Source of the DNA: Spirochaetaceae bacterium
GTDB lineage: Bacteria > Spirochaetota > Spirochaetia > B11-G9
DNA length: 64,000 nucleotides
Direction of reading: 5' to 3'
Assembly: GCA_015493635.1 (NCBI GenBank)
Contig: WGCU01000026.1
Coordinates: forward strand, 7,718 to 71,717
Shown one piece after another: positions 3,257 through 20,478 of this stretch; the first letter of the stretch is position 1, and the number at the start of each line of letters is the position of its first letter. Position numbers and translations under genes: made by a program. The notes beneath the pieces are model-generated. The model saw only the letters and a list, made by a program, of their open reading frames with translations. It was not told where the DNA came from and searched no databases.

Positions 3257-3273
3257 TAGATGGAGATGATAAA

Positions 3274-4032: not shown

Positions 4033-4040
4033 GTGCGGAA

Positions 4041-5360
4041 ATGAAACTATATAAAACGGTATTATTATGTTTGGCAGGAACGGTACTATGGGCTGGCAGC
4101 ACGTTTGCTGACAGTATAAACACCAATGATCTTTTCGGAAGCAGCTCGGGGGCTCTTGTGGAAGAACCCTCCGGGAATACTGATAAAACGGATCTTTCGT
4201 CTGACCTCCTGACCTCAAAGGCAGGGGTAACAATAGGGGGCGCTTATCATTTTAAGGCAGCAGCCGCTTTGAAGGAAAATGATCTGGAAAATCCTTCTTT
4301 CGATTCCATGGATGATTCTTTTTCCATAGATCTTGGAACAACCCTGTCCTTTGATGCCCGTCCGGATGATACGATCCGGGTCCTGGGTAAGGTGGTTATT
4401 GCATATCCCTTTACGGGGGGAACGTTTTCCGATGTCTTTCATGTGACAGAGCTCTTTTCCGATTTTAATATTGACGACAAGGTGTTTTTCCGTGCAGGGA
4501 AAAGCACCATCAACTGGGGAGTGGGCTATTTTTTCAGTCCTGCGGACCTTCTTAATGTGAGCAAAATAGATCCTGAAGATCCTGATGCTGAACTGGAAGG
4601 ACCGGTTTCTGTAAAAATCAATGTTCCGGTTGGAATCAATAATCTCTATCTGTACGTTATAGCACCGGAGGGTATTATTTCTGCTTCAGAACTTGCGCTT
4701 GCTCCCAAAGCGGAGTTTGTTATCGGTGACAGCGAGTTTGGTCTGGGTGCTTACTATCAGAAAGACCATGTTCCAGCAGGGATGGTTACCGTAACGTCAG
4801 CTCTGGGAGATGTTTCTCTCTTCGGTGAAGGCGTTGTAACCTACGGATCCGATAAAACCTTTGTAAAGCAGGACGGCATGTCCTATGCTCTCGTTACGGA
4901 TGATGATACCGTTTTCTTTAAGGGAACTGCGGGTTTTAGGTACTCCTGGAGCGATGATCTTTCCAATTTTTCGTTTAATGTTTCCGGGCAGTATCTTTTT
5001 AACGGTGAAGGGTACGAAAATAATGATCAGGATTTTGTAACTGCCAACAGACTGATAATTATGGGAAGCGGACTTGTTTCTGCGTCTGATATTGCACAGA
5101 CCGGCCGGCATTACGGCGCCGGAAACTTCAGCTGGAATGAAATGTTCCAGAGTGATTTTACGTTCAGTATGTTTTGGCTGGGAAATCTCTCTGACGGATC
5201 AGGCATGATGAAACCTTCGCTTTCCTATACAGGGTTCGATGATATTGATATTTCACTGAGTCTCCCCTATAGTTATGGTGATATCGGTGATGAATATACT
5301 CCCATGGGAGATTCTGTGTCCGCGTCTTTAACCTTTTCTCTTGGAGGAACTGCCTTCTAA
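4041..5360 (+). CDS. putative outer-membrane beta-barrel protein (hypothetical), signal peptide, C-terminal aromatic residue
   Basis: 439 aa. Signal peptide MKLYKTVLLCLAGTVLWAGSTFA. Ser/Thr/Gly/Asp/Phe-rich with alternating beta-strand-like segments. Ends in ...LTFSLGGTAF (terminal Phe, typical of an OMP C-terminal strand). Tightly linked to the ABC/LolA-like genes. Confidence 0.5.
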   Translation: MKLYKTVLLCLAGTVLWAGSTFADSINTNDLFGSSSGALVEEPSGNTDKTDLSSDLLTSKAGVTIGGAYHFKAAAALKENDLENPSFDSMDDSFSIDLGTTLSFDARPDDTIRVLGKVVIAYPFTGGTFSDVFHVTELFSDFNIDDKVFFRAGKSTINWGVGYFFSPADLLNVSKIDPEDPDAELEGPVSVKINVPVGINNLYLYVIAPEGIISASELALAPKAEFVIGDSEFGLGAYYQKDHVPAGMVTVTSALGDVSLFGEGVVTYGSDKTFVKQDGMSYALVTDDDTVFFKGTAGFRYSWSDDLSNFSFNVSGQYLFNGEGYENNDQDFVTANRLIIMGSGLVSASDIAQTGRHYGAGNFSWNEMFQSDFTFSMFWLGNLSDGSGMMKPSLSYTGFDDIDISLSLPYSYGDIGDEYTPMGDSVSASLTFSLGGTAF

Positions 5361-6061
5361 TGGATGGACGGGTATTGATTATTGAGGATGAAATAGAGCT
5401 GGGTGAACTTATTCAGCTTTTTCTGAAAAAAGACGGTATTCAATCTGATCTATATCCTTCTGCGGAAGAGGGGCTCATCATCCTTAAGAAGCAGGTGTAT
5501 GACCTTATTATCCTTGATATCAATCTTCCCGGGATGGATGGTTTTGAATTTCTGCAGATTCTGCGCAGAAATTCTGCTGTCGGCGTTATCATCCTTTCTG
5601 CGCGTGAAGCGGATGAGGATATCGTCCTGGGACTTGGCCTCGGGGCAGATGAGTTTGTCACGAAACCCTTTGCTCCGAAGGTCCTTGTTGCCAGGGTACG
5701 GGCGCTGCTCCGACGTTTTAAGGCGCAGAAGGGAAATGTTTCGGGCAGAATTTATTTCGGCCCCTTTGAAATGGATATTGGCGGGTATTCAGTAGTGAAG
5801 GAGGGGGACAGAGTCCCTCTTTCCACTAAGGAGTTTGAGGTTTTGCGGTTTCTCATCGAAAACGCGGGAAAAGTATTTACCCCCCCTGAAATTTATCAGG
5901 CTGTCTGGAAACAGGAATTTGGAGATGTAACCTCTGTTGCCGTGTATATACAGCGGCTTCGAAAAAAACTTGAACCTGATCCGGCTGCTCCTGAACTCCT
6001 TATTACTGTCAGAGGGAAAGGGTATCTCTGTAATAAAAAAATGGTAACCTATGAGTCTTAA
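5360..6061 (+). CDS. two-component response regulator, OmpR/winged-helix family
   Basis: REC domain (LIIEDE...DLIILDINLPGMDG...KPF) followed by an OmpR-type DNA-binding domain. The ATG overlaps the upstream stop (TAATG). Confidence 0.9.
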   Translation: MDGRVLIIEDEIELGELIQLFLKKDGIQSDLYPSAEEGLIILKKQVYDLIILDINLPGMDGFEFLQILRRNSAVGVIILSAREADEDIVLGLGLGADEFVTKPFAPKVLVARVRALLRRFKAQKGNVSGRIYFGPFEMDIGGYSVVKEGDRVPLSTKEFEVLRFLIENAGKVFTPPEIYQAVWKQEFGDVTSVAVYIQRLRKKLEPDPAAPELLITVRGKGYLCNKKMVTYES

Positions 6062-7352
6062 AACACGGTTTGTTCTCCTTGTTGTAGGTTCTGTGCTTAT
6101 TCCAAACATTATTATCATGATGATTGTCGGACTCTCTTTCGGCGGGTTTAATAATATCTATGCGCTTCATAAGCAGATGAAAACATACTATACTGTCAAT
6201 AAAATGATCCGCCGTCCGGTAGATAAGAAAGAGTTTTTCACGTATTTACAATCATCTTCTCCTGTAGACTATTACATTATCAGCAGTGACAGGACGTTCC
6301 TTACCTCTTCAACCGGTACCAATGATTTAGCGAATGCACTGCAGAAAGGCAGGACGTTTACAGTACGGGAAGTTGCATTTACCGGTAACAGCAGTGCACT
6401 CCTTTTCCTCCATTTGCCGGCGCTTGAACATTTTGCTCTTGCCAGGCAGACCCCTTTTCAGCTTGTTGCTCCTCTGGTGCTTCTTTCGGTCCTGTCACTC
6501 CTTTCTCTGATTGTAATCCGGTCCATAAACAGCTCCCTTAAAAAGATAGAAGAAGCGACACGAAAGGTTGCAGAAGGGAACTATGACTTTGAACTTCCGG
6601 TACGGGGGAATGATTCCATAGCGTCCCTTTCACGCTCATTCAATATCATGATTGAAAAAGTCAGGGAGGAATACTCCCGCCGGGCACGGTTTTTTATGGG
6701 AGTTTCTCATGATCTTAAAACTCCTCTGGCTTCCATAAGCGGTTACGCGGACGCAATTCTCGAAGGGTATGCGGACAGCAAGGAATCTCTCGATAAGTAC
6801 GCAGGAATAATCAAGGACAAATCCGGACTTCTGCTGGACAGGGTATATCACCTTATTGATTTTGTGAAACTGGAAACTGGAGAGTGGAAGATATCTTTTC
6901 AGGATACTCCTTTAAAGAAGTTCCTCTTGGGAATTATTGATGCTGCTTCGGTTGATGCGGAGCTCTATCACTATACGTTTGAATCGAAAATTTTTATTCC
7001 GGATAGTGTTGTTGTTCCCATGGATACAGGGCTTGTTCGGCGCAGTTTTGATAATATTATTCATAATGCATTCCGGTATGCTGAGGAAGGAACCCGAATA
7101 AAAATTACAGCAGAGGAAGGAAATGGGGGAATTACAATTTCCATAGCAAACCGGGGAAAGGGAATACCGGAAGAAGATCTCCACTATATCTTTGAGCCTT
7201 TTTACCGGGGGTCCTCAACCCGGAATGAGGACGGTTTTGGTCTGGGACTTGCAAATGTTGCTTCTGTTATTAAATCTCACGGCTGGGAAATCTCTGTAAC
7301 TTCAGTACCTGGCGGAATAACTACTTTTACCATTTTCGTTCCGTTATCATAA
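6051..7352 (+). CDS. sensor histidine kinase (TM sensor, HAMP, HisKA, HATPase_c)
   Basis: Two TM segments, HAMP (SLKKIEEATRKVAEGNYDFELP), H-box (FFMGVSHDLKTPLASISGYAD) and G-boxes (GFGLGLANVAS). Overlaps the RR gene by 11 nt. Confidence 0.9.
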   Translation: MSLKTRFVLLVVGSVLIPNIIIMMIVGLSFGGFNNIYALHKQMKTYYTVNKMIRRPVDKKEFFTYLQSSSPVDYYIISSDRTFLTSSTGTNDLANALQKGRTFTVREVAFTGNSSALLFLHLPALEHFALARQTPFQLVAPLVLLSVLSLLSLIVIRSINSSLKKIEEATRKVAEGNYDFELPVRGNDSIASLSRSFNIMIEKVREEYSRRARFFMGVSHDLKTPLASISGYADAILEGYADSKESLDKYAGIIKDKSGLLLDRVYHLIDFVKLETGEWKISFQDTPLKKFLLGIIDAASVDAELYHYTFESKIFIPDSVVVPMDTGLVRRSFDNIIHNAFRYAEEGTRIKITAEEGNGGITISIANRGKGIPEEDLHYIFEPFYRGSSTRNEDGFGLGLANVASVIKSHGWEISVTSVPGGITTFTIFVPLS

Positions 7353-10407: not shown

Positions 10408-11023
10408 AATCTTTATCTATTTTACTCCGTAATCTCGAAACAAGGACATCGACTATGTTTGTTTGAGGATCAAAGTCATAGTGCCAGATTTTTTCCATAA
10501 TAAGTGTTTTTGAAAGGACTCTTCCTGTGTTTCTTAACAGATATTCCAGCAGAGCGAATTCTTTAGGCTGCAGGTCTATTTCCTGTCCTGCACGTTCAAC
10601 CCTGTGGGACAGAAGTGAGAGAGATAAATCCGCGCAGGATAAAACGGTTGATTCAGGTACCGCGGAGGATCGGCGAATGAGAGCCTGTATCCGTACAAGC
10701 AGCTCTGAAAAGGAAAAAGGTTTTGTAAGATAGTCATCCCCGCCTTTCTGGAGCCCGCGGATTTTATCGTCAACATCCCGCTTGGCACTGAGAATAATGA
10801 TGGGAACCTGTTTTCTTCTGGCACGGACTTTTTCAATTATAGTGAGTCCGTCCATACCCGGAAGCATAATGTCAACTATTGCCGCATCGTATGAACCGGT
10901 AAGGAGAAGCGCAAACCCCTCCTCACCGTCTGAAGCGGTATCAGTTATAAATCCCGCTTCTTCCAGACCTTTAGAAATAAAAGATCTGATTCCCTCATCA
11001 TCTTCTATAACAAGTATTTTCAT
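10349..11023 (-). CDS. two-component response regulator, OmpR family
   Basis: REC (MKILVIEDDEGIR...DAAIVDIMLPGMDG...KPF) plus a winged-helix output domain (LLEYLLRNTGRVLSKTLIMEKIW). Confidence 0.9.
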   Translation of the reverse strand: MKILVIEDDEGIRSFISKGLEEAGFITDTASDGEEGFALLLTGSYDAAIVDIMLPGMDGLTIIEKVRARRKQVPIIILSAKRDVDDKIRGLQKGGDDYLTKPFSFSELLVRIQALIRRSSAVPESTVLSCADLSLSLLSHRVERAGQEIDLQPKEFALLEYLLRNTGRVLSKTLIMEKIWHYDFDPQTNIVDVLVSRLRSKIDKDFDKKLLHTIRGVGYVLKED

Positions 11024-11030
11024 AATACTT

Positions 11031-12689
11031 CTAGCTTATCCCTACCATCTCATTATTAACCATTTTCCGTACTGTTCTGGTATCAAGAATACCGACAGGA
11101 GTAGGATTCTCTTCTGATTCAACAACGGGAAGCTGTTCTCTGCCAAGTTGTTTTAAAATAAGGAGAGCATCATTAAGAGGTTCTGCCTTGGTGATAACTT
11201 CAGGTGCCGGAGTAACAATATCTCCTGCCAGGATCCATTCCCACGTTTCCTGTGAAACCATAAGCTGTTTTAAATCATTCATGGTGATCATTCCTACAGT
11301 TTTACTATTTTGATCTACGACCGGGAGACAAAAGAAATCTGTTTCCGAAAAAAGGGAAACCACCTGCTTGACCGAATCAGTAATCTTTATATAAGGGACC
11401 TCAGCATCAAGGACATCGGAAACCTTCCATCTGGCTATAACATCTTCTTCAGTTATATTTTTCCCTGTTTCTTTTGCGAGTTTAACGGCCAGTTTTGTCA
11501 TAGGCGGCCCGATGACCTGAACAATAAAGGTTGTAGCGGTAACACCGGTAATAATGATATCACCAAGGTCTATGCCGTCTGCAAGCTTAAGACCATGAAG
11601 ATGCTGTGTCGCCATAATTGATAATCCAATTGCTACACCCCCCTGGGCAAAGAGGCCAAGCCCTGTATATTTCTGAACTGCAGGGTCGGCATGGGTAAGT
11701 TTTGCTCCCAGCCACGCTCCGGTCATTTTACCGGTTGTCCTGAAAATGACATAGGCCGCTACAATAATCCAGAGAAACAGGGGCATCCCGCTCAGGACAA
11801 GTCTGGTTCCGACAAGTACAAAAAATAACACGTAAATAGGAGCGGAAAAACTCTTTATAAGGTCAAAGAAGTCTTTGCTGCGGTCCGGAGCAAGGTTTGT
11901 CACCACAAGCCCCATTGTCATACTGGCAAGAATAACATCAACATCAAGAATCATGGCCAGGGCAATAAGAATGAGAAGAGTCCCAATGCCGAAAACCATC
12001 GTTCTCGTTTTATCAGTACTGTACCGGACAATTAAGTTCATGAATACACCGGCTGCTCCGCCCAGTACTATGGCTCCGAGCAACTCAACAGTTGTCTTGA
12101 TTATCTGTGAAGAGAGTGAAGCGTGGCCCCCGATTATCATTTGCGCCGCGGCTGTGCCGAGACCATACAGGGTCATTGCCAGAGCATCATCCATTGCCAC
12201 AATAGCAATGAGGGTTGTTGTCAATACTCCCTTTGTACGGTATTCCCAGAGTACGTTAATTGTCGATGCGGGGTCTGTTGCTGAAGCAATAGCGCCGAAA
12301 ACAATCCCCCCGGCAAGGGCTGCCGCAAAGTTTTTGGTAAATATGTACAGTATCAGACTGACAGCTACCGTAACCAGTACAAACGCAAAGGTACCCTCTC
12401 CGAAAAGAATGGCGGAGAATTGTTTCCCGTATTTTTTCATGGTACTGCCGTGAAGCTCACCGCCGACCATAAAACCGATAATTCCGAGAGCAAAGAAATT
12501 AAAGTTCTTCAGTGAAGCGATAATATCACTGTTTATAAAACCGAATCCGCTTTTCCCGATAATAATTCCTATGGCAAGATATCCAAGAACTTGAGGGATC
12601 CGTATCTTCTGAAAGAACCAGGCTCCTGCAATTCCTCCGAAAATGCCGATTCCAAGAATAAAAAGAATATTTGAACTTAAAACAGACAT
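11031..12689 (-). CDS. cation:proton antiporter (Na+/H+ exchanger family) with C-terminal CBS-domain pair
   Basis: About 12 TM helices with the N-terminal pattern typical of PF00999 (GYLAIGIIIGKSGFGFI...). The C-terminal ~130 aa contains two CBS-like motifs (VPYIKITDSVKQVVSLF...CLPVVD..KTVGMITMNDL; LPVVESEENPTPVGILDTRTV). Confidence 0.8.
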   Translation of the reverse strand: MSVLSSNILFILGIGIFGGIAGAWFFQKIRIPQVLGYLAIGIIIGKSGFGFINSDIIASLKNFNFFALGIIGFMVGGELHGSTMKKYGKQFSAILFGEGTFAFVLVTVAVSLILYIFTKNFAAALAGGIVFGAIASATDPASTINVLWEYRTKGVLTTTLIAIVAMDDALAMTLYGLGTAAAQMIIGGHASLSSQIIKTTVELLGAIVLGGAAGVFMNLIVRYSTDKTRTMVFGIGTLLILIALAMILDVDVILASMTMGLVVTNLAPDRSKDFFDLIKSFSAPIYVLFFVLVGTRLVLSGMPLFLWIIVAAYVIFRTTGKMTGAWLGAKLTHADPAVQKYTGLGLFAQGGVAIGLSIMATQHLHGLKLADGIDLGDIIITGVTATTFIVQVIGPPMTKLAVKLAKETGKNITEEDVIARWKVSDVLDAEVPYIKITDSVKQVVSLFSETDFFCLPVVDQNSKTVGMITMNDLKQLMVSQETWEWILAGDIVTPAPEVITKAEPLNDALLILKQLGREQLPVVESEENPTPVGILDTRTVRKMVNNEMVGIS

Positions 12690-12692: not shown

Positions 12693-13340
12693 TTACTCTC
12701 CTTTTGTTAATAGGGAATAAATTTTTTCTGGAGTTTCAGCATTAAGTAAATTCTCCCTGAAAGAGTCATCCTGCAGCAGCTTGCTTATTGAAGCTAGCAG
12801 TTTTAGATACTCTGCATGCTGATTATACGCTGCTGCGACCATAAAAACAATTCTCACTGGTGTATTGTCGAGAGCCTGATAGTCAATAATATCATTTTTG
12901 TTTACTGCAACCGAAACAACAATATCGGAAACGTCATATATTCTGACATGGGGAATCCCTATCCCCAGTCCAATGCCGGTACTCATTAGTTTTTCCCGTT
13001 CCCAGATAGCTTCTTCAAGTTTTTTTGCATTTTTTATCTGGGGAGCACCGGAAATATTTTTGATAAGTGCGGTGAGTATATCACGTTTAGTTGAAAAGTC
13101 AGTGACTATAACTCTTTCCGGAGCCAGCAGATGCTTCAAGTCATTCAGTTCACTTTCTTTTGTTTTGTTATTCTCCAACCGGTTGTTGATCCAGCGGTCA
13201 ATCTCACTTTTTTTAAATCTCCAGACATTACCCAGCTTTCCGGCCGGGATATCTCCCTTTTGTGCCCAGTCCAGAACAGTCCGTTCTGAAACTTTTATGT
13301 ATTTGGCAACTTCCTCAATGGTAAGAATGGTATCGTCCAT
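12693..13340 (-). CDS. HTH (excisionase/MerR-type) DNA-binding domain fused to PTS EIIA(Ntr)-like (PTS_EIIA_2) domain
   Basis: N-terminal LTIEEVAKYIKVSERTVLDWAQKGDIPAGKLGNVWRFKKSEIDRWI (HTH_17-like). C-terminal EIIA-2 fold with a conserved His in GIGIPHVR. Start set at the internal ATG (MDDTILT) rather than the longer upstream ORF. Confidence 0.75.
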   Translation of the reverse strand: MDDTILTIEEVAKYIKVSERTVLDWAQKGDIPAGKLGNVWRFKKSEIDRWINNRLENNKTKESELNDLKHLLAPERVIVTDFSTKRDILTALIKNISGAPQIKNAKKLEEAIWEREKLMSTGIGLGIGIPHVRIYDVSDIVVSVAVNKNDIIDYQALDNTPVRIVFMVAAAYNQHAEYLKLLASISKLLQDDSFRENLLNAETPEKIYSLLTKGE

Positions 13341-13486
13341 ATAAACCTCCCGAAGTAGTATATGTCTACATATATACACACAAAGATGCAAAATGTCAAT
13401 ATACATGATAAAAAGTTAATAAATGTTTGGTAATAAAAAATCAAATATGGCTTTTACAAAGAAAGAATATGCGATAAACTAATCAG

Positions 13487-13889: not shown

Positions 13890-15512
13890 TTAATTTTCTG
13901 TAAGCCTTGATACCGAATTGAACATCTCTTTTGTATATGCTGCCGAGTCTTTTACAAGTGAATGAACGAGGTCAGTGGAATCCGCTATACTGTCTGCATC
14001 GGTAGATATTTCTCCGGATACACCTTTGATAATTTTAATAAAATCAGACACTTTGAGTAATTTTTCTTTTGCGTTTTTCTGATCCGCCGTTATTTTGCCG
14101 GATCCCTCTCTGATACTTATTGAGCTGTCCTGAAGCACCTGCATGGACTTCATTATTTCCTGACCTCCTTCAGAAAGTTCTGCTGTGGAACCTGTTATCT
14201 CCGAGAACGCTTCGGACACAAGTTTTATTTCGGTAACGAGTTGTTCAAAGATTTTATTTATTTTTTCGGTATGGGATTTCGACATATCCATACTTCCAAT
14301 AAGGTTTTTCAAACTGTCGGCAATAATTCGTGAGTTTTCAGCTGTTGATCCCGCCAGCTTACGTATCTCATCCGCTACCACAGCAAAACCTTTTCCTCGT
14401 TCACCCGCATGTGCTGCTTCAATGGCAGCATTCATGGAAAGCAGGTTGGTTCTGTCCGCAATATCCGAGACAATCTTGTTTATATCAAGCAGGGCATGAG
14501 CATCATTTGCAGAAACCTCAACAGCTGAATTTGTCTCCTTCATTGCAGTTTTTCCCTCTTCTGCAATATTCAGAAGTGCATTGGTAGTATCTCTCTTGGC
14601 AGAAGTAATTTTGGCAACATTATCCAGCGAAGCTGACATCTGATTTACTGCAGCAGTGGATTCTTGAACAACAGTATTCTGCTCTTCTACCTGCAGATCA
14701 AAGTTTTCCACCTCGTTTGTTGTATTATCAACATAGGAAAGAGCTTCTTTCATATTGACAGAAAGGTTTTCCGCGTTTGTTGTAAAATGTTTCAGATGCT
14801 CCTTTATGGAGGAGCTTCCTTCAAGTATGTGTATAAAGTTATCTTCTACCGATTGGTTGGACGTTGCAGATAACTCGGCTGTTTTTACAACGTTCTGGAT
14901 TCTCTTTATGGTTTCTTCACTTTCATGTTGGGTTTTTTCCATGAACTCCATTGATCGACGGACATTTTTTGCAATATGAATTGAGAATAGAGTAAGCAGG
15001 GTATACAGTACTCCTGCAACAATCAGCCGTTCAGGTATACGGTTTATATCATCAGATTTTAGGATGGGGACTAGTTTGGTAAAAAAAGCTGCAGGAATCA
15101 CTACTGCTCCAATTGCAGCGGATACAATGGTAAACCATTCCGAATCGCTTACTACCAGTGAGAGTATAATCGGGAGGCTCATGTACAGTGTCAGCTGATA
15201 AATTTGATAAACAGAGACGGGGCTGATGATGAATGATAATCCTATAAGTGCGAGCTGTGAAAAAGCAAGGGGCATGACACTTGCGAATCTGTAGAAACCT
15301 TTAAAAAGCGCAATCATGGAAGCAACCATGGCTAACAAGATCGTAAACTCAACAATGACTGTTACCATGTCGCCGTCAATAATTTTTTGTACAATTATAA
15401 TAGGTGTTGTACTCAAAATAACTGTTATGACAAAAAATACCCCTGATACCTTATTTTTGATAACAATTCCGGAATCTTTATAGATTTCCTGTAGTTTTTT
15501 ATTTATATACAT
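13890..15512 (-). CDS. methyl-accepting chemotaxis protein (multi-TM sensor + MCP signalling domain)
   Basis: Highly conserved MCP signalling hairpin [31 protein letters not shown]. About 6 N-terminal TM helices. Start uncertain (15512 or 15557). Confidence 0.85.
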
Positions 15513-15597
15513 AATGTAAGTGTAATATCTATTTGCATATATAGCAATATCTCTCAAGTGCCTACCCTGAATTAGCTATGAAAGGAATAGAAAGTTC

Positions 15598-15626
15598 TTG
15601 ACTTTTGCACATAAGTGCATTATATT
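15598..15626 (+). promoter_or_regulatory. sigma70-like promoter TTGACT-N17-TATATT with embedded 14-bp palindrome TGCACATAAGTGCA (candidate operator)
   Basis: -35 at 15598-15603 and -10 at 15621-15626. A perfect 5-4-5 inverted repeat at 15606-15619 lies in the spacer. RBS AAGGATGG sits 5 nt before the DUF134 ATG (15652). Confidence 0.45.
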
Positions 15627-15651
15627 GATCTTGAAATTATAAGGATGGATT

Positions 15652-16107
15652 ATGCCGAGGCCTAAAAAAGAACGGCTGGTCAGAAGGCCGCCGCTGTATA
15701 CAGAGTTTAAACCCGCAGGGGTTATGCGAAATTCCCTGAAGCAGGTTGTTTTGGAACTTGATGAGCTGGAAGCGATACGGCTTGCAGATTATCTGGGGAT
15801 GGATCACTCTGAGGCAGCGGAAGAGATGGAGATCTCCCGTTCAACGTTTACACGGCTGGTAGAAAAGGCACGGAAGAAGATTGCCGTGTTTCTTGTTGAA
15901 GGATTGAACCTCTCCATAGAGGGAGGGAATATCCACTTCAGGGGTAATGTGATCCAGTGTCTAGATTGTGGGCATATGTTCAATACCGGGTTTGATGTAA
16001 ATATCACAAAGTGTCCGGCCTGCGGTTCTGAACGTTTGGTTGATCTTGCCGGAGGTTTTGGACATGGAGCATGCTGCCGGGGGCATAATCATCGAGGCAG
16101 GAGGTAA
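15652..16107 (+). CDS. DUF134/UPF0251 family predicted DNA-binding protein with C-terminal zinc-ribbon extension
   Basis: MPRPKKERLVRRPPLYTEFKPAG...LELDELEAIRLADYLGMDHSEAAEEMEISRSTFTRLVEKARKKIAVFLVEG is the canonical DUF134 (sigma-70 region-4-like HTH). An extra C-terminus follows: CLDCGHMF...CPACGSE plus a His/Cys/Arg-rich tail GHGACCRGHNHRGRR. Confidence 0.8.
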   Translation: MPRPKKERLVRRPPLYTEFKPAGVMRNSLKQVVLELDELEAIRLADYLGMDHSEAAEEMEISRSTFTRLVEKARKKIAVFLVEGLNLSIEGGNIHFRGNVIQCLDCGHMFNTGFDVNITKCPACGSERLVDLAGGFGHGACCRGHNHRGRR

Positions 16108-16110
16108 AAA

Positions 16111-16440
16111 ATGCCAAGAGGAGACAGAACTGGACCTAATGGAATGGGCCCGCGGACAGGAAGAGGCGCCGGGTTTTGCAACGGTTATAACAGACCGGGA
16201 TATATGAACGGCGGTGCCGGAACAGGATTTGGTTACGGTAGAGGTATGGGACGCGGCTATGGCCGCGGCATGGGGTACGGATACGCGCCTGTTGGCGGTT
16301 ATACTGCACCCTATGGAGTATCCTATACTCCCTACAGTAAGGAAACAGAGAAAGGCTACCTGGAAAATGAGATCAGTATTTTAAAAGAACAGCTTAAGGC
16401 TTCAGAAGCACGGCTTGCTGATCTTGGAGACGAAGAGTAG
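16111..16440 (+). CDS. DUF5320 family glycine/tyrosine/arginine-rich small protein with C-terminal coiled coil
   Basis: N-terminal MPRGDRTGPNGMGPRTGRGAGFC matches the DUF5320 signature. A G/Y/R low-complexity segment follows (GYGRGMGRGYGRGMGYGY), then an amphipathic helix LENEISILKEQLKASEARLADL. Confidence 0.7.
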   Translation: MPRGDRTGPNGMGPRTGRGAGFCNGYNRPGYMNGGAGTGFGYGRGMGRGYGRGMGYGYAPVGGYTAPYGVSYTPYSKETEKGYLENEISILKEQLKASEARLADLGDEE

Positions 16441-16491
16441 ACTCTACACGGGGCGGAAGAGTTTCCGCCCGTGTTATAATAGGAGGTACAT

Positions 16492-16722
16492 ATGCCTGGA
16501 AACGGTATGGGTAATGGAACAGGAAGAGGCCAGGGGCTTGGCAGAAGCGGCAGCGGCCGCGGTAGAAACGGCGGCGGCGGGTTCGGTTCCGGCGGGTACT
16601 GTGTGTGTGCTCACTGCGGAGCAAAAGTGCCGCATGCCAGAGGGACAAAATGCACAGATCTGCGGTGCCCTGAGTGCGGGAAGCCTATGGTTCGGGAAGA
16701 ATTGCTGAACAAGAAAAAATAA
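16492..16722 (+). CDS. glycine-rich small protein with C-terminal Cys/His zinc-ribbon (DUF5320-related N-terminus)
   Basis: MPGNGMGNGTGRGQGLGRSGSGRGRNGGGGFGSGGY followed by CVCAHCGAKVPH...CTDLRCPECGKPM. RBS AGGAGG sits 6 nt upstream. Confidence 0.6.
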   Translation: MPGNGMGNGTGRGQGLGRSGSGRGRNGGGGFGSGGYCVCAHCGAKVPHARGTKCTDLRCPECGKPMVREELLNKKK

Positions 16723-16732
16723 AGGAAGCACC

Positions 16733-17599
16733 ATGAAGATAGCAATTGCCAGCGGGAAAGGCGGAACGGGGAAAACAACCCTCTCTACCAATCTCGCTGC
16801 TTTTTTAGCGGAGAAAGAACATGTTGTTCTTACCGATCTGGATGTGGAAGAGCCGAACTCCGGACTCTTTATTAAAGGGACCCTGAAACATTCTGAATCA
16901 AAATACAAGATGATACCTGAATGGGACTCCGCTTACTGTAATCTCTGCGGGATATGTCAGGAGGTATGCAATTTTAACGCTGTTTTAAAAATGGGGAAAA
17001 ACATTATGGTTTTTCCCGAATTATGCCATGGCTGTTATGCATGTTCTGAGCTCTGTCCAAAAAATTCTCTTCCCATGAAAGAAAAGCCTATGGGGGAATT
17101 AAAACATTTTGAAGCTGCCGGTCTTTCTTTTATTGAGAGCAAGCTTCTTATAGGAGAGGAACAGGCTGTTCCTTTGATAAAGCAGACGATAGATTATGTG
17201 GATGAAAATTTTCCGGAAGAAATCATAAAAATATACGACTCTCCTCCGGGAACATCTTGTCCTGTTATTGAAGCAACAAAACATGCTGATATTGTTATTC
17301 TTATCACTGAACCGACTCCTTTCGGGTTTCACGATCTTACATTGGCCGTTGAAACGATCAGGGAGCTGAAAAAAGAATTTGTTGTTGTTGTAAACAGGTA
17401 TGGAATCGGAGATGACAGTGTGGAAAAATATTGTAAAGCGGAAGGGATTACCATTATCGGAAAAATACCAAATGACCGGAAAGTAGCGGAAGTTTATGCA
17501 AAAGGTGATCTTCTTTATCCGGCTCTGCCGTCTGTAAAAAAAGTTATAGAAAAAATCGCGCTTTTTATTCAGGGAGAACGGGGAGACTCAGGACGATGA
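16733..17599 (+). CDS. MinD/Mrp-superfamily P-loop ATPase with inserted 2x[4Fe-4S] ferredoxin domain (COG1149-type)
   Basis: Deviant Walker A IASGKGGTGKTT. Two ferredoxin motifs: CNLCGICQEVC and CHGCYACSELCP. ParA/MinD-like C-terminal half. Confidence 0.85.
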   Translation: MKIAIASGKGGTGKTTLSTNLAAFLAEKEHVVLTDLDVEEPNSGLFIKGTLKHSESKYKMIPEWDSAYCNLCGICQEVCNFNAVLKMGKNIMVFPELCHGCYACSELCPKNSLPMKEKPMGELKHFEAAGLSFIESKLLIGEEQAVPLIKQTIDYVDENFPEEIIKIYDSPPGTSCPVIEATKHADIVILITEPTPFGFHDLTLAVETIRELKKEFVVVVNRYGIGDDSVEKYCKAEGITIIGKIPNDRKVAEVYAKGDLLYPALPSVKKVIEKIALFIQGERGDSGR

Positions 17600-18465
17600 A
17601 AGAGATTGTTGTTATTTCAGGGAAAGGCGGAACAGGAAAAACATCCATAACAGCTTCTTTTGCCGTTTTGGGAGGGGCAAATCTTCTTGTAGCGGACTGT
17701 GATGTCGATGCTGCTGATATGCACCTGCTTCTGGAACCGGATTTTGCCGGAGATGAAGATTTTTACAGCGGAGAGGTTGCCGAAATTGATCAGGAAACAT
17801 GTATTCAGTGCGGGAAGTGTGCCGAAGTATGCAGGTTTGATGCAATCCCTGTTGTAGATGGCAAGTATACTGTTGATCCTCTATCCTGTGAGGGATGCGG
17901 ATACTGTGCAAGAATATGTCCGGTAAAGGCGATTACAAACTCGGTTCAGAGAGTAGGTAATCTGTATACCTCATCAATCCGTACCGGGACAAAAATGATT
18001 CACGCAAAATTGGGAATTGGAAACGAAAATTCCGGTAAGCTGGTTGCAAAGGTAAAAAATGACGCGAAAGCTCTCGCTGAAAAAGAACAGAAGAATTATA
18101 TTCTTGTTGACGGTTCTCCGGGAGTTGGGTGCCCTGTTGTTTCTTCTCTTTCCGGTGCAACATTTGTTGTTCTTGTAACGGAACCGACTGTTTCCGGTGT
18201 TCATGATTTAATAAGGGTTTATGAACTGGTAAAAAAGTTTAAAATAAACGCCGGCTGCATTATAAATAAGGCGGATATCAATCCGGAAAGAAACAGGGAA
18301 ATAAAAGACTTTATAAGGAAGGAATCTATTACACTTCTTGCGGAGATTCCATATAATGAAAATTTCACAAAAGCGATGACCATGGGAAAGACAATTGTAG
18401 AGTTTGATAGTATATTGAAGAAAATAATTGTGGATTCCTGGGAAAAAATAAAACAAAAAGCTTAA
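17596..18465 (+). CDS. MinD/Mrp-superfamily P-loop ATPase with inserted 2x[4Fe-4S] ferredoxin domain (second paralog)
   Basis: ISGKGGTGKTS Walker A. Ferredoxin motifs CIQCGKCAEVC and CEGCGYCARICP. The ATG overlaps the upstream stop by 4 nt (ATGA). Confidence 0.85.
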   Translation: MKEIVVISGKGGTGKTSITASFAVLGGANLLVADCDVDAADMHLLLEPDFAGDEDFYSGEVAEIDQETCIQCGKCAEVCRFDAIPVVDGKYTVDPLSCEGCGYCARICPVKAITNSVQRVGNLYTSSIRTGTKMIHAKLGIGNENSGKLVAKVKNDAKALAEKEQKNYILVDGSPGVGCPVVSSLSGATFVVLVTEPTVSGVHDLIRVYELVKKFKINAGCIINKADINPERNREIKDFIRKESITLLAEIPYNENFTKAMTMGKTIVEFDSILKKIIVDSWEKIKQKA

Positions 18466-18480
18466 ACAAGCGGAGGGAAC

Positions 18481-18813
18481 ATGAAAATTATATTTACAGC
18501 AAAAGGGACGGAGTGGGATTCCCCTATGGATCCGAGATTCGGCCGTACGGAATATTTTTTCATCTATGATGAGGATTCCAAAAAAATTGAAACGTACGAC
18601 AATCGAGCTATTGAAAATGAAGCGCATGGAGCAGGGCCGAAAACATCTCAAAAACTCGCTGAATATGGAGCGGATATTTTAATTACCGGTAACGGACCTG
18701 GAGGAAATGCAGCAGCAGTTTTACAGCAGGTGGGAATAAAAGTTATTACCGGTGCGGGTGATATGACCGTTAAAGAGGCGTATGAAGCTTTTAAAAATGG
18801 AACATTGAGCTGA
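18481..18813 (+). CDS. NifX/NifB-like dinitrogenase FeMo-cofactor-binding family protein (PF02579-like)
   Basis: MKIIFTAKG...PRFGRTEYFFIYDEDSKKIETYDNRAIENEAHGAGPKTSQKLAEYGADILITGNGPGGNAAAVLQQVGIKVITGA matches the Nitro_FeMo-Co fold pattern (hFGr..yf.iyd......e.i.n....hg.G...a..L...g.dv.itg.iG..A...L...GI.V). Confidence 0.8.
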   Translation: MKIIFTAKGTEWDSPMDPRFGRTEYFFIYDEDSKKIETYDNRAIENEAHGAGPKTSQKLAEYGADILITGNGPGGNAAAVLQQVGIKVITGAGDMTVKEAYEAFKNGTLS

Positions 18814-18814
18814 T

Positions 18815-19207
18815 ATGAAGTCCCTTATAATTGCTGCAGCGACCGATGATGGAGAAAACTTTATTAGTAGGCATTTTGGAGACGCGGGATATTATAATCT
18901 TTACCGGCTTACTCCGGAGAAAGCTGAATTTATAAAAAAGATCACCAATGTATCAGAGAAAGAACGGATGCATGCGGATCCTGGTAAAGCACAGGGTATC
19001 ACCGAAATACTGAGAAAAGAAAAGGTTCAGGTTGCTGCTTCAAAAGTGTTTGGGCCTAATATTAAACGGATAAAGAAAAAGTTTGTTTGTGTTCTTACAA
19101 ATGCAAATTCTATTAACGAAATACTCATCATTCTGCAAAAACAGTTCTCCCGGCTCACTCAGGAATGGGAAGCAGGAGAGGTAAGAGAAGTCATCAGACT
19201 GCAGTGA
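18815..19207 (+). CDS. NifX/NifB-like (Nitro_FeMo-Co family) protein, second divergent paralog
   Basis: IIAAATDDGENFISRHFGDAGYYNLYRL...HADPGKAQGITEILRKEKVQVAASKVFGPNIKRI retains the family pattern. Starts 2 nt after the previous gene. Confidence 0.65.
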   Translation: MKSLIIAAATDDGENFISRHFGDAGYYNLYRLTPEKAEFIKKITNVSEKERMHADPGKAQGITEILRKEKVQVAASKVFGPNIKRIKKKFVCVLTNANSINEILIILQKQFSRLTQEWEAGEVREVIRLQ

Positions 19208-19213
19208 GGATGT

Positions 19214-19414
19214 ATGAAACAGACTGAATGTAAATGGTTTCCTGTCTGTCCCATGAAGTATTTCTTTGAGAGAGGGATGGTTGCTGAAAAGTACATCCTC
19301 GCTTACTGCAAAGGAGATAACAAATCCTGTGTACGTTATCAGAAAGAGGAAGCGGGGATATATCATCCGGATAATATGCTACCGGACGGAACAATTGATA
19401 AAAGTTTAGTTTAA
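19214..19414 (+). CDS. small cysteine-rich protein (C-x5-C ... C-x6-C), hypothetical metal-binding
   Basis: 66 aa, MKQTECKWFPVCPMKYFFERGMVAEKYILAYCKGDNKSCVRY..., last gene of the operon. No family recognised from sequence alone. Confidence 0.45.
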   Translation: MKQTECKWFPVCPMKYFFERGMVAEKYILAYCKGDNKSCVRYQKEEAGIYHPDNMLPDGTIDKSLV

Positions 19415-19611
19415 TAATTTCTTCGTATGCAGTAAGAATATGATTGACGGATATTACCATTATATATATGATTAAATAATGGATTTTAATGGGGATGCAC
19501 ACGCAGGGAAATGGCACCGGCAGGTATCTCTTCTTGCTAAAGTCATTAAAGGTGGGCATGTGAGCAGGGAAAGCATCTGCTATTATGAAGATGGTTCATC
19601 GTAAGAGATTT

Positions 19612-20478
19612 CTATCCGCTTTTTATAAGAATAATTGCAATAAGAGATAAGGAGACTGCAGCTATTCTTAAAAGTGTTAATTTTTCTTTATAGATGATGG
19701 CTGAAAGAAAAATAGGAATGAGAATTGAAAGGGCAAAAATGGGCTGAACAAGTGCCATACTGCCTGCGGCGAATGCTTTCAGGACAAAAATATATCCAAA
19801 AAAATTAAGAACTCCTATGGATCCCCCAATAATAAAGATTTTTGGAGTTTTGAAAGTCTTTTTGCGCTGTTCCGGAGGTATCCGTGTTTTGTAAAGGAGG
19901 AATGAGATACCGGTAACTATTGAGTAAGAGATAAAAATATAGATAATTTTATCCGTTTTTGTCGATGCCAATTTACCTGCTGTCATGGAGAAAGATGTGC
20001 AAACCGCAGCAAGAAGGGCAAATCCGATGCCTGCCAAGGGTGTTTTGTTTATACCCTTTACGTGCTCCATGGACAGAAGGATCAGCACAAAAACCGAAAG
20101 TGCTGCTCCTGCCCATTGTTCCGGAGCCGGGGTTTCACGGAAGAATACCACTCCGATAATAATAACAATAACGACATTTGATTTATTTACCGGGAATACA
20201 ACAGCCGCAGGTGCACGTTTTAAGGCGTTGAATTTTGAAAGAGCTCCAAGGGCAAAAAATGTGCCGTTAAACAGTGCAAAGGGCAGGGCAGAGACAAAGA
20301 GTGATAGATTGTGGTGATCCAGAATAAGCACGGTGAGAGAGCAGAGAACAACGGAAAATGCAGATATAAGGACTACTCCCTGGGTAACAAGTTTATATTC
20401 CGCGGCAATTTTATATAGAAAATTAAGCGATCCGTAAAAAAGTGTTGCGGTGATGCTGTATATAAACCATAACGGCAC
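19612..20478 (-). CDS. DMT-superfamily (EamA-like) membrane transporter
   Basis: 288 aa, 10 predicted TM helices in two repeated halves. Hydrophobic throughout, with an EamA-like pattern. Confidence 0.75.
   Translation of the reverse strand: MPLWFIYSITATLFYGSLNFLYKIAAEYKLVTQGVVLISAFSVVLCSLTVLILDHHNLSLFVSALPFALFNGTFFALGALSKFNALKRAPAAVVFPVNKSNVVIVIIIGVVFFRETPAPEQWAGAALSVFVLILLSMEHVKGINKTPLAGIGFALLAAVCTSFSMTAGKLASTKTDKIIYIFISYSIVTGISFLLYKTRIPPEQRKKTFKTPKIFIIGGSIGVLNFFGYIFVLKAFAAGSMALVQPIFALSILIPIFLSAIIYKEKLTLLRIAAVSLSLIAIILIKSG

Follow-up and report, generated by a model that had tools for sequence, protein, structure and literature searches.

What might an operon that combines two ferredoxin-containing ATPases with two NifX-like proteins do in a stretch of DNA that encodes no nitrogenase? 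The question is raised by a 64-kb stretch of spirochaete DNA (hereafter the window), in which eight co-directional open reading frames, g1 to g8, occupy positions 15652-19414 of the + strand. A preliminary description, made from the sequence, regarded these genes as a candidate uncharacterised, ATP-driven system for the assembly, carriage or insertion of a metal cluster or cofactor.

Organization and conservation of the locus

All eight open reading frames exist at the coordinates first given for them and are called genes in public assemblies, and the description of a compact operon is borne out. The spacers from g1 to g8 measure 3, 51, 10, -4, 15, 1 and 6 nt, and only one start/stop overlap exists, between g4 and g5 (ATGA), rather than the two originally counted. 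A GC-rich intercistronic hairpin without a U tract lies between g2 and g3 (16447-16473, + strand; -21.6 kcal/mol, z = -3.7); related locus L001 carries a hairpin of other sequence at the same place (-21.4 kcal/mol, z = -4.9), and L014 has none there. The domains proposed at the outset were recovered with Pfam: DUF134, DUF5320, two CbiA/ParA P-loops, both of which contain 2x Fer4, and a pair of Nitro_FeMo-Co domains. The flanking genes, encoding an MCP, an EamA transporter and a PTS-EIIA/HTH protein, are unrelated to the operon. A search of the rest of the 64 kb found no additional homologue of the P-loop, NifX-like, Mrp or NifU proteins, and neither MrpORP nor a stand-alone Orp5 is present in the window. 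The search also upheld the claim that the window lacks nitrogenase (nif) genes, and none recur among related loci.

Gene-neighborhood analysis, one of the checks initially suggested, showed the gene set to be conserved in about 80 loci across many phyla, far beyond chance. The comparison set comprised 81 loci from many anaerobic phyla, 50 of them well flanked. The tandem ATPase pair occurs in 75 of the 81, with A preceding B in 74 of the 75 pairs, and a NifX-like gene is found in every well-flanked locus (50/50), with two or more in 42. MrpORP is linked in 22/50 loci, and the MrpORP of one related locus scores 539 bits against a curated cutoff of 450. Other recurrent neighbors include Orp5-like Zn_ribbon_8 proteins and sigma-54 activators, as well as genes of Fe-S context, namely NifU_N scaffold genes (11 loci) and CoA-disulfide-reductase-like genes (9 loci).

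Relationship to the orange protein complex

The ATPases g4 (ATPase A, 16733-17599, + strand) and g5 (ATPase B, 17596-18465, + strand) are paralogues built from the same modules, a MinD/Mrp-class deviant-Walker-A P-loop with a 2x[4Fe-4S] ferredoxin insertion, and both have a switch II Cys that is invariant (Cys176 in g4, Cys179 in g5). They were compared with the ATPases of ORP-encoding loci, whose orange proteins are 68-75% identical to that of Desulfovibrio gigas. Here, g4 shares 39% identity with ATPase 1 (2e-70 to 3e-74) and 32% with ATPase 2, whereas g5 shares 46-49% with ATPase 2 (about 1e-91 to 2e-95) and 33% with ATPase 1. Judged by these alignments, each of the two is the orthologue of one particular member of the ferredoxin-inserted ATPase pair whose genes lie next to those for orange proteins. 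The g6 product (18481-18813, + strand), an acidic, Cys-free, single-domain Nitro_FeMo-Co (NifX-fold) protein (5.5e-20), is orange-protein-like, sharing 32-36% identity with ORP orthologues and matching TM1290 (1rdu, 9e-16), D. gigas ORP (2wfb, 3e-15) and MTH1175 (1eo1, 2e-10) in the PDB. The g1 protein shares 39% identity with its DUF134 counterpart in ORP-encoding locus L085, which, like the spirochaete operon, is headed by a DUF134 gene and a gene for a Gly/Arg(Gln)-rich small protein. On the strength of the paralogue specificity of g4 and g5 and of the g6 and g1 matches, we put the probability that the locus is an orp (ORange Protein complex)-type cluster at roughly 90%.

The system is of a known kind: its ATPase pair, NifX-like protein and DUF134 gene have orthologues in the orp cluster of Desulfovibrio. 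The ORP complex and orp operons of D. vulgaris Hildenborough and D. gigas involve Orp3, Orp4, Orp5, Orp8 (ORP itself), Orp9 (MrpORP) and the regulator OrpR. They share with the spirochaete operon a paralogous P-loop ATPase pair with two [4Fe-4S] ferredoxin motifs (g4 and g5 being of the Orp3/Orp4 type), an orange-protein-like NifX-fold protein, and a restriction to anaerobes. Co-purification of Orp3, Orp4 and Orp8 yielded a complex that contains Fe-S and takes up clusters from MrpORP, which passes them to Orp3/4 in vitro (PMC6345978). Expression of the orp cluster is under redox potential control and is switched on only at very low potential (PMC8359166). The statement that no gene of the set has an experimentally defined function therefore holds only narrowly, in that the physiological role is still called unclear. 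A putative ATP-driven metal-cluster system fits what is published on the homologous complex. The gene organization differs from that of Desulfovibrio, in which two divergent operons are controlled by sigma-54, OrpR and IHF. The spirochaete genes instead form a single operon of sigma-70 type that has a predicted DUF134 operator, and they additionally encode g8, a DUF5320 protein, a GR/zinc-ribbon protein and another, divergent NifX-like protein.

The ATPase pair

The mechanism that we propose, a nucleotide-gated handling of metal-sulfide species, is tentative, and as a whole falls a little short of even odds. In it, g4 and g5, as MinD/Mrp-class "sandwich" ATPases, would pair obligately into an A/B heterodimer. 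On binding ATP this dimer would close, so that the two switch II Cys residues and the ferredoxin clusters meet at the interface and create a redox-wired, nucleotide-gated site. Walker A, the switch I Asp residues, the eight ferredoxin Cys and the switch II Cys are at least 95% conserved in both subunits. Many natural A-B fusions of about 600 aa exist, all in the A-B order and with both switch II Cys invariant. An AF2 model of one of them (pLDDT 92.2, pTM 0.90) is disordered in the linker alone, and the sole PDB chain aligning over both of its halves is closed-state ArsA (TM-score 0.41). ArsA, a pseudo-dimer, likewise consists of two homologous P-loop halves in tandem, and its soft-metal(loid) site is formed by Cys residues contributed by both. 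Unlike g4 and g5, ArsA lacks a ferredoxin insertion, and halves of the g4/g5 type are mostly encoded by separate genes; the ArsA Pfam match is below threshold and covers only the P-loop. With the Mrp/NBP35/ApbC/Cfd1 carriers and MrpORP, the pair shares the SIMIBI deviant-Walker-A fold and a D-x-PPG-type Walker B/switch II, and it is genomically linked to MrpORP. In place of the C-terminal CxxC bridging motif of those proteins, however, g4 and g5 carry the single switch II Cys and the inserted 2x[4Fe-4S] domain, and they score only 43 and 32 bits against the MrpORP profile (cutoff 450).

A role in cell division or spatial positioning is an unlikely alternative. On this reading the MinD-like A/B ATPases would place either the septum or a polar complex, and all that the Fe-S modules would add is the redox dependence of this activity. 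Such positioning was the original proposal for the ORP complex of Desulfovibrio; D. vulgaris shows morphological defects when orp expression is lost, and MrpORP has a polar location (PMC6345978, PMC8359166). The nearest solved relatives of the P-loop module, with its deviant Walker A, are indeed MinD, FlhG and FleN, both by sequence and by Foldseek. The spirochaete pair departs from these proteins in its ferredoxin insertion, invariant switch II Cys, obligate heteropairing, lack of MinC/MinE partners and steady linkage to metal-cluster carriers.

It is similarly improbable that the pair acts as an ATP-dependent low-potential reductase (an "archerase" akin to NifH/BchL), transferring electrons from its ferredoxin modules to a client enzyme or substrate, with the NifX-like proteins as accessories. 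The neighborhoods of related loci show no recurrent candidate client, NifDK/BchNB-like or other; the universally linked genes encode carriers rather than a catalytic partner. The top 60 sequence-profile matches do not include NifH, and one Cys per subunit is insufficient for a NifH-type bridging cluster.

The NifX-fold proteins

The second NifX-fold protein, g7 (18815-19207, + strand), is a basic, divergent protein of 130 aa in which HFGDA replaces HFGHC. Its Nitro_FeMo-Co score (8.7e-7; 29.6 bits) is just over the gathering score of 26.3 bits, and a sequence search of the PDB gave no match. Copies of the g7 type occur in L001, L005, L008, L009, L016, L017, L019 and L021. From nitrogenase maturation proteins (NifX, NafY and the NifB C-terminal domain) and NifH the system is set apart by NCBIfam scores far below cutoff (nifX, 21 against 112 bits; nifB, 15.5 against 344 bits), together with the lack of nif genes. 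In the proposed metal-sulfide mechanism, g6 and g7 would hold an inorganic, non-covalent, anionic metal-sulfide species and exchange it with the ATPase; this species may be Fe-S or thioferrate-like, or a thiometallate as on the orange protein.

The only chemically defined ORP ligand is the non-covalent [S2MoS2CuS2MoS2] cluster (PMC6345978), a MoaA-like radical SAM gene (well under curated cutoffs) recurs in 17 loci, and an ArsP_2 permease is adjacent in 5. Nevertheless, it is quite doubtful that the system buffers or detoxifies Mo/W/Cu sulfides in sulfidic habitats, with ORP-like proteins sequestering thiomolybdate or thiotungstate-copper species. Neither inside this operon nor next to it is there a transporter for Mo, W or Cu or a regulator of the ModE type, Fe-S-related neighbors (MrpORP, NifU_N) are at least equally frequent, and the very broad distribution and high conservation of the system, about 70% identity across phyla, suggest a housekeeping role.

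The small proteins

The g2 product (16111-16440, + strand) is a DUF5320 protein of 109 aa (PF17253, 3.5e-29), found in 36/50 well-flanked loci. Its acidic, heptad-like C-terminal helix follows a disordered, Gly/Arg/Tyr-rich N-terminus of 75 aa with 25 Gly, 8 Arg/Lys, 12 aromatic and 1 acidic residues (pI 10.0). The 76-aa g3 product (16492-16722, + strand) joins a Gly/Arg-rich N-terminus of 36 aa (pI 12) to a C-terminal Cys6/His2 zinc ribbon. It matched no Pfam or NCBIfam family, and has homologues in 18/50 well-flanked loci and 30/81 overall; g3 and g8 are conserved genes, 67% and 63% identical to their L001 counterparts.

The low-complexity proteins g2 and g3 were first suggested as possible scaffolds or adaptors, and are better read as analogues of the tail of IssA, an iron-sulfur storage protein of Pyrococcus furiosus that forms thioferrate nanoparticles. 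The NifX-fold (IPR003731) domain of IssA is related to g6 and to MTH1175, a g6 homologue and a tail-less member of the IssA clade; the IssA tail (70 aa with 15 Gly, 7 cationic and 14 aromatic residues, pI 10.7) is a proposed binder of anionic thioferrate (PMC5524996). The N-terminus of g2 is a cationic, Gly/aromatic disordered sequence of equal composition. IssA carries its tail and its NifX domain in one chain, whereas g6 and g7 are tail-less and the tail-like sequences are separate proteins bearing a coiled-coil-like helix (g2) or a zinc ribbon (g3); for IssA, no accompanying ATPase pair is described. By this analogy, the disordered tails, cationic and aromatic, that IssA has in cis to wrap polyanions would be provided in trans by g2 and g3.

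The last gene, g8 (19214-19414, + strand), encodes a Cys4 miniprotein of 66 aa that matched no Pfam family. It belongs to a widespread family (249 clusters), labelled "uracil-DNA glycosylase" in some sources, whose gene contexts are mostly unrelated. It was found in just 4 of the 84 loci in which it was sought, and in 1/50 well-flanked loci. Although g8 is probably co-transcribed with the operon, it does not belong to the core of the system, and would be a lineage-specific passenger.

Predicted promoter and operator

The operon was thought to lie behind a single strong promoter. A predicted sigma-70-type promoter on the + strand (15598-15626), with -35 TTGACT (15598-15603), a 17-nt spacer and -10 TATATT (15621-15626), matches the consensus at 10/12 positions, but promoter-like matches in the region are not above those in shuffled sequence (9 versus 8.7). 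The prediction is credible because the -35/operator/-10 layout recurs in related loci (L001, L013, L017, L018, L022, L041 and L043). The spacer is filled by the palindrome TGCACATAAGTGCA (15606-15619), a predicted site for the DUF134 protein with the family consensus TGnnCATATGnnCA and the extended form TTWTGARCATATGYTCAWAA.

Allowing at most one mismatch between -150 and +20, 23 of 32 DUF134 genes carry TGnnCATATGnnCA upstream, against a background of 1.2% of 170-nt windows (binomial P = 1.5e-37); flanks beyond the search pattern are likewise conserved. Since the palindrome sits in the promoter spacer of these genes, DUF134 is likely an autorepressor acting there, and the conserved operator supports the earlier suggestion that g1 is the dedicated regulator. 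The g1 protein (15652-16107, + strand; 151 aa; PF02001, 4e-23) is an HTH protein with a C-terminal zinc ribbon and a GGFGHGACC/Arg-rich tail. It also matches Sigma70_r4_2 (5e-7, above cutoff) and Zn_ribbon_8 (5e-4, below cutoff), and conserved DUF134 features include R3, R8, FKPxG and SRxTFxR..ARxK. By binding the palindrome, g1 would repress the operon; it is possibly also a sensor, and may respond to the metal-sulfide ligand proposed for g6 and g7, or else to redox state, by way of its zinc ribbon and Cys/Gly/Arg tail.

The palindrome resembles the Fibrobacter LexA box and ArsR-type 6-2-6 cores, and GAACATATGTTC turns up in papers on Gram-positive SOS boxes, too. It is nonetheless very unlikely to be the operator of another regulator, whether LexA-type (GAAC-N4-GTTC or TGCNC-N4-GTGCA) or an ArsR/SmtB-type repressor, with DUF134 in a different role. 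Its central CATATG is invariant (C5, T7, A8 and G10 in 25/25 sites) and positions 3-4 vary, the reverse of a LexA box. LexA boxes differ across phyla, whereas the palindrome is unchanged among them and recurs in archaeal locus L035. It accompanies DUF134 genes and orp operon heads, not DNA-repair genes, and ranks first among 1,024 palindromes of the same architecture (21/31 regions, against 8 for the runner-up). A second, perfect palindrome with 0 mismatches, TGGGCATATGTTCA (15969-15982), lies inside g1 over the zinc-ribbon codons C-G-H-M-F-N, and a site is present at the same position (+317) in L001, L005, L008, L014 and L023. It may act as an operator within the gene, or may simply follow from conservation of the peptide.

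Conclusions

Three points appear to be new: the promoter-spacer palindrome upstream of DUF134 genes, the apparent mimicry in trans of the thioferrate-binding tail of IssA by the Gly/Arg/Tyr-rich proteins, and the status of g8 as a peripheral add-on. The operon itself is a spirochaete-type copy of the orp cluster family, a kind of system already known and widespread in anaerobes, and our best guess at its role is the ATP- and redox-gated handling of anionic inorganic metal-sulfide species.

Identity and layout of the operon

The eight-gene operon described here belongs, with a probability that we put at roughly 90%, to the orp (ORange Protein) type of gene cluster. The preliminary description had placed eight genes on the + strand, and all were found at their given positions: g1 (15652-16107), encoding a DUF134 protein; g2 (16111-16440), a DUF5320 protein; g3 (16492-16722), a Gly/Arg-rich zinc-ribbon (GR/zinc-ribbon) protein; g4 (16733-17599) and g5 (17596-18465), two ATPases termed A and B; g6 (18481-18813), an orange-protein-like protein; g7 (18815-19207), a second NifX-like protein; and g8 (19214-19414), a Cys4 miniprotein. 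Each product is also present verbatim as a called gene in public assemblies. The genes are separated, in order, by 3, 51, 10, -4, 15, 1, and 6 nt; thus, only one overlapping start/stop junction exists (g4/g5), rather than the two that had been claimed. A recognisable Shine-Dalgarno sequence precedes most of the eight. Pfam searches agreed with the earlier domain calls, returning DUF134, DUF5320, two P-loop ATPases with ferredoxin motifs, and two Nitro_FeMo-Co domains; the CbiA/ParA-type P-loop domains of g4 and g5 are each interrupted by two Fer4 motifs, and neither g3 nor g8 matches a Pfam family.

Transcription was said to start at a single strong promoter. A sigma-70-like match (TTGACT-17-TATATT) does occur at 15598-15626, but the regional number of such matches is not above that of shuffled sequence. 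No Rfam family was detected within 15400-19700, and a search for an intrinsic terminator 3' of g8 found none. The 51-nt g2-g3 spacer contains a GC-rich hairpin without a U tract (16447-16473; -21.6 kcal/mol, z = -3.7). A hairpin of unlike sequence occupies the same position in L001, the related locus closest in synteny (z = -4.9), and is absent from that position in L014. This element could be a partial terminator or an mRNA-stabilising structure that uncouples the levels of g1-g2 from those of g3-g8.

Unrelated genes flank the operon (an MCP, an EamA transporter, and PTS-EIIA/HTH), the last, about 2.2 kb upstream (12693-13406, - strand), combining an HTH_17 domain of the excisionase/MerR type with PTS EIIA_2 in an unusual fusion. 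The rest of the 64 kb contains no further member of any of the operon's families and, as had been noted, no nitrogenase genes. The right part of the window (42916-64000) is a core chromosomal region with strongly positive GC skew, containing tRNA-Thr, tRNA-Trp, a ribosomal-protein operon (L5 confirmed at 62611-63162), a weak P-loop match at 55564-56790, and two large ORFs of 1168 and 1406 aa, sizes that we take to be typical of rpoB/rpoC. The orp cluster is therefore chromosomal and not carried on a mobile element.

Correspondence to the orp clusters of Desulfovibrio

The first pointer to orp was a match to the NCBIfam MrpORP model. This gene set was reportedly described for Desulfovibrio in 2011. 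The D. vulgaris set includes the paralogues Orp3 and Orp4, with two [4Fe-4S] ferredoxin motifs apiece; the small [2Fe-2S] protein Orp5; the orange protein (ORP), Orp8, which has a NifX fold and a non-covalently bound Mo-Cu-S cluster; and MrpORP, Orp9. Of these, Orp3, Orp4, and Orp8 co-purify and accept Fe-S clusters from MrpORP (PMC6345978). Transcription of the D. vulgaris orp operons is confined to a potential of about -425 mV, and the role of these operons has been called "still unclear" (PMC8359166).

ORP orthologues and their loci were retrieved with the D. gigas orange protein sequence (2wfb), and the window proteins were compared with them by pairwise BLAST. The locus of a 75%-identical orthologue encodes, in order, DUF134, a Gly/Gln/Arg-rich protein of 112 aa, ORP, ATPase 1, ATPase 2, a NifX-like protein, and Zn_ribbon_8. 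The two window ATPases sort onto this pair: g4 shares 39% identity with ATPase 1 (2e-70 to 3e-74) and 32% with ATPase 2, whereas g5 shares 46-49% with ATPase 2 (about 1e-91 to 2e-95) and 33% with ATPase 1. They thus correspond to Orp3 and Orp4, with the ATPases beside ORP orthologues as reference rather than DVU2103/DVU2104 themselves. The Orp8 counterpart is g6, a single-domain Nitro_FeMo-Co protein of the orange-protein type, which is 32-36% identical to the ORP orthologues of loci L085 and L087 and matches 2wfb (E = 3e-15) about as well as it does TM1290 and MTH1175. In addition, g1 shares 39% identity with the DUF134 protein of an ORP locus.

Other components differ. No MrpORP (an Mrp/NBP35 P-loop fused to Nitro_FeMo-Co) is encoded in the 64-kb window, although 22 of 50 related loci have one; the genome may carry a copy outside the window. 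The third P-loop gene of many loci has this NUBPL plus Nitro_FeMo-Co architecture, and that of L030 scores 539 bits against the MrpORP equivalog cutoff of 450 (NCBIfam). A stand-alone Zn_ribbon_8 (Orp5-like) protein was likewise not found in the window: the C-terminus of g1 resembles Zn_ribbon_8 below the cutoff (E = 5e-4) and the L087 protein weakly (E = 0.019), and pairwise BLAST showed no relationship of g3 or g8 to the Zn_ribbon_8 proteins of L085 and L087. Compared with the characterised Desulfovibrio clusters, the window operon has DUF5320, GR-ribbon, and g8 genes in addition. Single operons headed by DUF134 also adjoin true ORP orthologues, however (L085), and the operon is therefore not a separate variant class; in itself, it is an ordinary member of the orp family that would not surprise a specialist.

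The terminal gene lies outside the conserved system, although it is probably co-transcribed with it across the 6-nt spacer. Its family comprises 249 clusters of ~65-aa Cys4 proteins from Spirochaetes, Fidelibacterota, Petrotoga, Elusimicrobiota, and Altiarchaeota. Three distant relatives of g8 were examined, and their contexts are unrelated save for one with DUF134 and NifX-like genes ~2 kb away. An assignment as an Orp5 homologue was rejected, since g8 does not resemble the Zn_ribbon_8 proteins encoded at ORP loci and its family occurs mostly in unrelated contexts. Several sources name family members "uracil-DNA glycosylase" or "DNA polymerase", for which 66 aa is far too short; these names are probably an annotation artefact. 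In L089, a family member is convergent to a real UDG gene. The family may represent a detached Fe-S-binding segment.

Conservation across anaerobes and the search for a client

Homologues of the g4 ATPase number in the thousands (634 clusters at 50% identity, E < 1e-30), with ~70% identity in Spirochaetes, Cloacimonadota, and Marinimicrobia; the nearest named homologues are from Spirochaetales MAGs, which makes an uncultured spirochaete the probable source of the operon. Scanning of one genome per species yielded 80 loci, in which ORFs were called and searched with iterated profiles of the eight window proteins. These loci span Spirochaetota (including a Treponema denticola MAG), Bacteroidales, Calditrichota, Campylobacterota, Planctomycetota, Dehalococcoidia, Desulfobacterota, Synergistota, Acidobacteriota, and a Methanocellaceae archaeon. 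A tandem ATPase pair is present in 75 of the 81 ATPase-bearing loci, with the g4-like gene first and the g5-like gene second in 74 of those 75. Among the 50 loci with adequate flanks, every one has a NifX-like gene (42 with at least two copies); more variable are DUF5320 (36 loci), a third P-loop gene (22), DUF134 (20), and a GR/zinc-ribbon gene of the g3 type (18), and g8 was found only once. The gene set is thus conserved in loci of many phyla, and the orp-type cluster is both conserved and ancient. L001 retains the gene order, except that a CoA-disulfide-reductase-like gene (10527-11879 of that locus) separates g8 from the second NifX-like gene; flavoproteins of this kind occur in nine loci. 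Directly upstream on the same strand, L001 also carries a three-gene set resembling an NADH-dependent [FeFe]-hydrogenase (1012-6495; 2Fe-2S_thioredx, Complex1_51K/NADH_4Fe-4S, and Fe_hyd_lg_C).

Several other genes recur near the ATPase pair: a MoaA-like radical SAM protein scoring far below the MoaA cutoffs (17 loci), Orp5-like Zn_ribbon_8 proteins with Cys-rich tails (16), sigma-54 activators (16), ARMT1-like/DUF89 phosphatases (13), NifU_N scaffolds (11), metallo-beta-lactamase-fold proteins (11), 4HBT thioesterases (9), and CGGC-domain proteins (8). None of these neighbours is universal, and no single client enzyme was found among the related loci. This survey bears on what the system does. 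A role in cell division has been published for the ORP complex, but no division gene recurs in the related loci, and we consider this role quite unlikely here. Equally doubtful is an ATP-dependent low-potential reductase serving an unidentified client, for which a recurrent client enzyme is similarly lacking. A function in thiometallate buffering appears very unlikely. The absence of a recurrent client or division gene, the universal linkage to a carrier, and the frequent linkage to MrpORP, NifU, and Orp5-like genes together favour the handling of a cluster or metal sulfide.

The ATPase pair

Dozens of natural proteins of ~600 aa fuse an A to a B ATPase through a short linker, which is disordered in the model; the AF2 model of an A-B fusion is otherwise confident (pLDDT 92.2, pTM 0.90). 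The fixed gene pair, the natural fusions, and this model lend indirect support only to a putative physical complex resembling Orp3-Orp4-Orp8. Each subunit has one conserved Cys outside the ferredoxin motifs (C176 in g4 and C179 in g5). In contrast, Mrp/NBP35/ApbC carriers hold a bridging [4Fe-4S] cluster at the dimer interface through a CxxC motif, which g4 and g5 lack. Membership in the Mrp/NBP35/ApbC/MrpORP family was accordingly rejected (43 and 32 bits against the MrpORP cutoff of 450), as was identity with MinD (minD_arch, 46 and 62 bits against a cutoff of 202); no MinC or MinE partner is encoded at the window locus or the related loci. Fold searches did not discriminate among MinD, HypB/Mrp, NifH, ApbC, and BchL.

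NifX-fold proteins and Gly/Arg-rich proteins

The two NifX-fold proteins are dissimilar: g6 is acidic, lacks Cys, and has 110 aa, whereas g7 is basic, divergent, and 130 aa long, with HFGDA in place of the HFGHC motif found in MrpORP and in the second NifX-like protein of the ORP locus. Well-characterised NifX or NifB homologues had been considered as an outcome that would overturn the earlier interpretation; however, both proteins fall far below the NCBIfam equivalog cutoffs (g7, 21.4 bits against 112 for nifX and 15.5 against 343.65 for nifB; g6, no match), and the window contains no nif genes.

A closer parallel is offered by IssA of Pyrococcus furiosus, a NifX-fold protein that stores anionic thioferrate and whose disordered 70-aa tail (7 cationic, 14 aromatic, and 15 Gly residues; pI 10.7) was proposed to wrap the polymer; MTH1175 is a tail-less member of the same clade (PMC5524996). 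In IssA, the NifX domain and its cationic, Gly/aromatic C-terminal tail form one polypeptide. By contrast, g6 and g7 have no tail, and similar compositions are found in the separate g2 and g3 proteins, a likeness of functional analogy only. The first 75 residues of g2 include 25 Gly, 8 Arg/Lys, 12 aromatic residues, and a single acidic one (pI 10.0), with an acidic heptad-like helix behind them, and residues 1-36 of g3 include 18 Gly and 4 Arg/Lys (pI 12) ahead of a Cys6/His2 ribbon. From this composition and the gene linkage, we infer that g2 and g3 may act as IssA-like tails in trans.

DUF134 and its predicted operator

The g1 protein is a clear member of the DUF134 family (PF02001, 82 bits against the Pfam gathering score of 27), with the N-terminal basic arm, FKPxG motif, and HTH of that family. 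Its HTH passes the Pfam threshold as a sigma-70 region 4-type domain, and its SRxTFxR..ARxK helix is conserved. Invariant positions of the family are R8, P21, E40, L44, M59, S62, and R63. About two-thirds of the DUF134 proteins from L001-L065 continue into a C-terminal zinc ribbon and then a Gly/Arg-rich, often Cys-containing tail (e.g., GGFGHGxCC), the chemistry of which is the same as that of DUF5320 and g3; Campylobacterota members consist of the core alone (~95 aa).

The spacer of the g1 promoter is filled by a palindrome, TGCACATAAGTGCA (15606-15619), and the same element lies upstream of DUF134 genes in distant phyla. With the pattern TGNNCATATGNNCA and at most one mismatch, a site was found between -150 and +20 of the called start in 23 of 32 DUF134 genes, whereas random 170-nt windows drawn from these loci contain one in 1.2% of cases (binomial P = 1.5e-37); in several of the remaining genes, the start was probably miscalled and a site lies shortly after it. 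Some orp-type operons without an adjacent DUF134 gene likewise have a site upstream, at L087 (-40 of ORP), L026, L053, and L075. The flanks outside the search pattern are symmetric and conserved (T at -2 in 24/25, A at +17 in 22/25), extending the motif to about TTWTGARCATATGYTCAWAA. Of all 1,024 palindromes that share its architecture, this element matches the most upstream regions, 21 of 31, compared with 8 for the runner-up, composed of A/T only, and a median of 0. In 15 of 28 sites, the element lies between a -35 and a -10, the -35 typically 8-11 nt upstream and the -10 at 12-15 nt from the site start, which is the classical position for a repressor. Given the HTH, the conserved helix, and an operator within the promoter spacer, autorepression by DUF134 via this predicted site is the most economical reading. 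Recognition by another regulator of the LexA or ArsR type has little probability, given the invariant CATATG core, the variable positions 3-4, and the presence of the motif in an archaeal locus; a LexA box was specifically judged unlikely.

A second, perfect palindrome, TGGGCATATGTTCA (15969-15982), lies inside g1, 317 nt into the coding sequence, and a site recurs at this position in at least five other loci (L001, L005, L008, L014, and L023). It encodes a conserved C-G-H-M-F zinc-ribbon peptide, so its conservation fits coding constraint as well as a real internal operator, possibly one used for looping. Further matches at 19553 (intergenic, 3' of g8), 31502 (inside ClpB), and 62494 (in the ribosomal-protein operon) fit the 1.65 expected by chance and were set aside.

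Regulation of the D. vulgaris clusters involves a sigma-54 promoter, OrpR, and IHF, whereas the window operon has a sigma-70-like promoter and the predicted DUF134 operator, with no sigma-54 activator flanking it. OrpR has been reported as confined to Deltaproteobacteria (PMC8359166). Among the papers searched, none assigns a function to DUF134 or Orp7 or reports the motif; a conserved operator linked to DUF134 appears to be new.

Proposed mechanism and implications

Taken as a whole, the following mechanism has, in our estimation, slightly less than an even chance of being correct. The A and B subunits would form an obligate sandwich ATPase whose closure, driven by ATP, brings about a redox-wired cysteine site at the subunit interface. 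NifX-fold carriers would exchange non-covalently bound, anionic metal-sulfide species with this ATPase, the Gly/Arg/Tyr-rich proteins would supply electrostatic wrapping, and DUF134 would repress its own expression, perhaps in response to the ligand or redox state. A broader reading, which we regard as unlikely, holds that orp-type clusters constitute a widespread, ISC/SUF-independent anaerobe pathway that makes, stores, or delivers a protein-wrapped, thioferrate-like iron-sulfide or thiometallate polyanion. Here, the A/B ferredoxin-ATPase would be an ATP- and redox-gated loader, the NifX-fold proteins would be the carriers, the DUF5320 and GR-zinc-ribbon proteins would be trans-acting, IssA-like cationic wrappers, and the DUF134 proteins would be a new family of ligand- or redox-sensing repressors recognising TGnnCATATGnnCA.

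The ORP system is among the most conserved "anaerobe-only" gene sets, and the value of this operon lies in testable predictions on a question that dates back to the isolation of the orange protein. If the specific 14-20-bp operator is confirmed, the DUF134 family would acquire a function, together with a regulon for which any genome could be scanned. The proposed obligate, ordered A/B heterodimer, with one invariant interface cysteine in each subunit, presents an obvious target for mutagenesis. The resemblance of the DUF5320 and Gly/Arg-rich proteins to detached IssA tails connects published work on ORP with that on IssA and suggests an inorganic polyanion as substrate. Confirmation would reveal a new route for handling iron-sulfur or metal-sulfide species in sulfidic habitats of very low potential, in a system whose bearers include host-associated spirochaetes and Bacteroidales.
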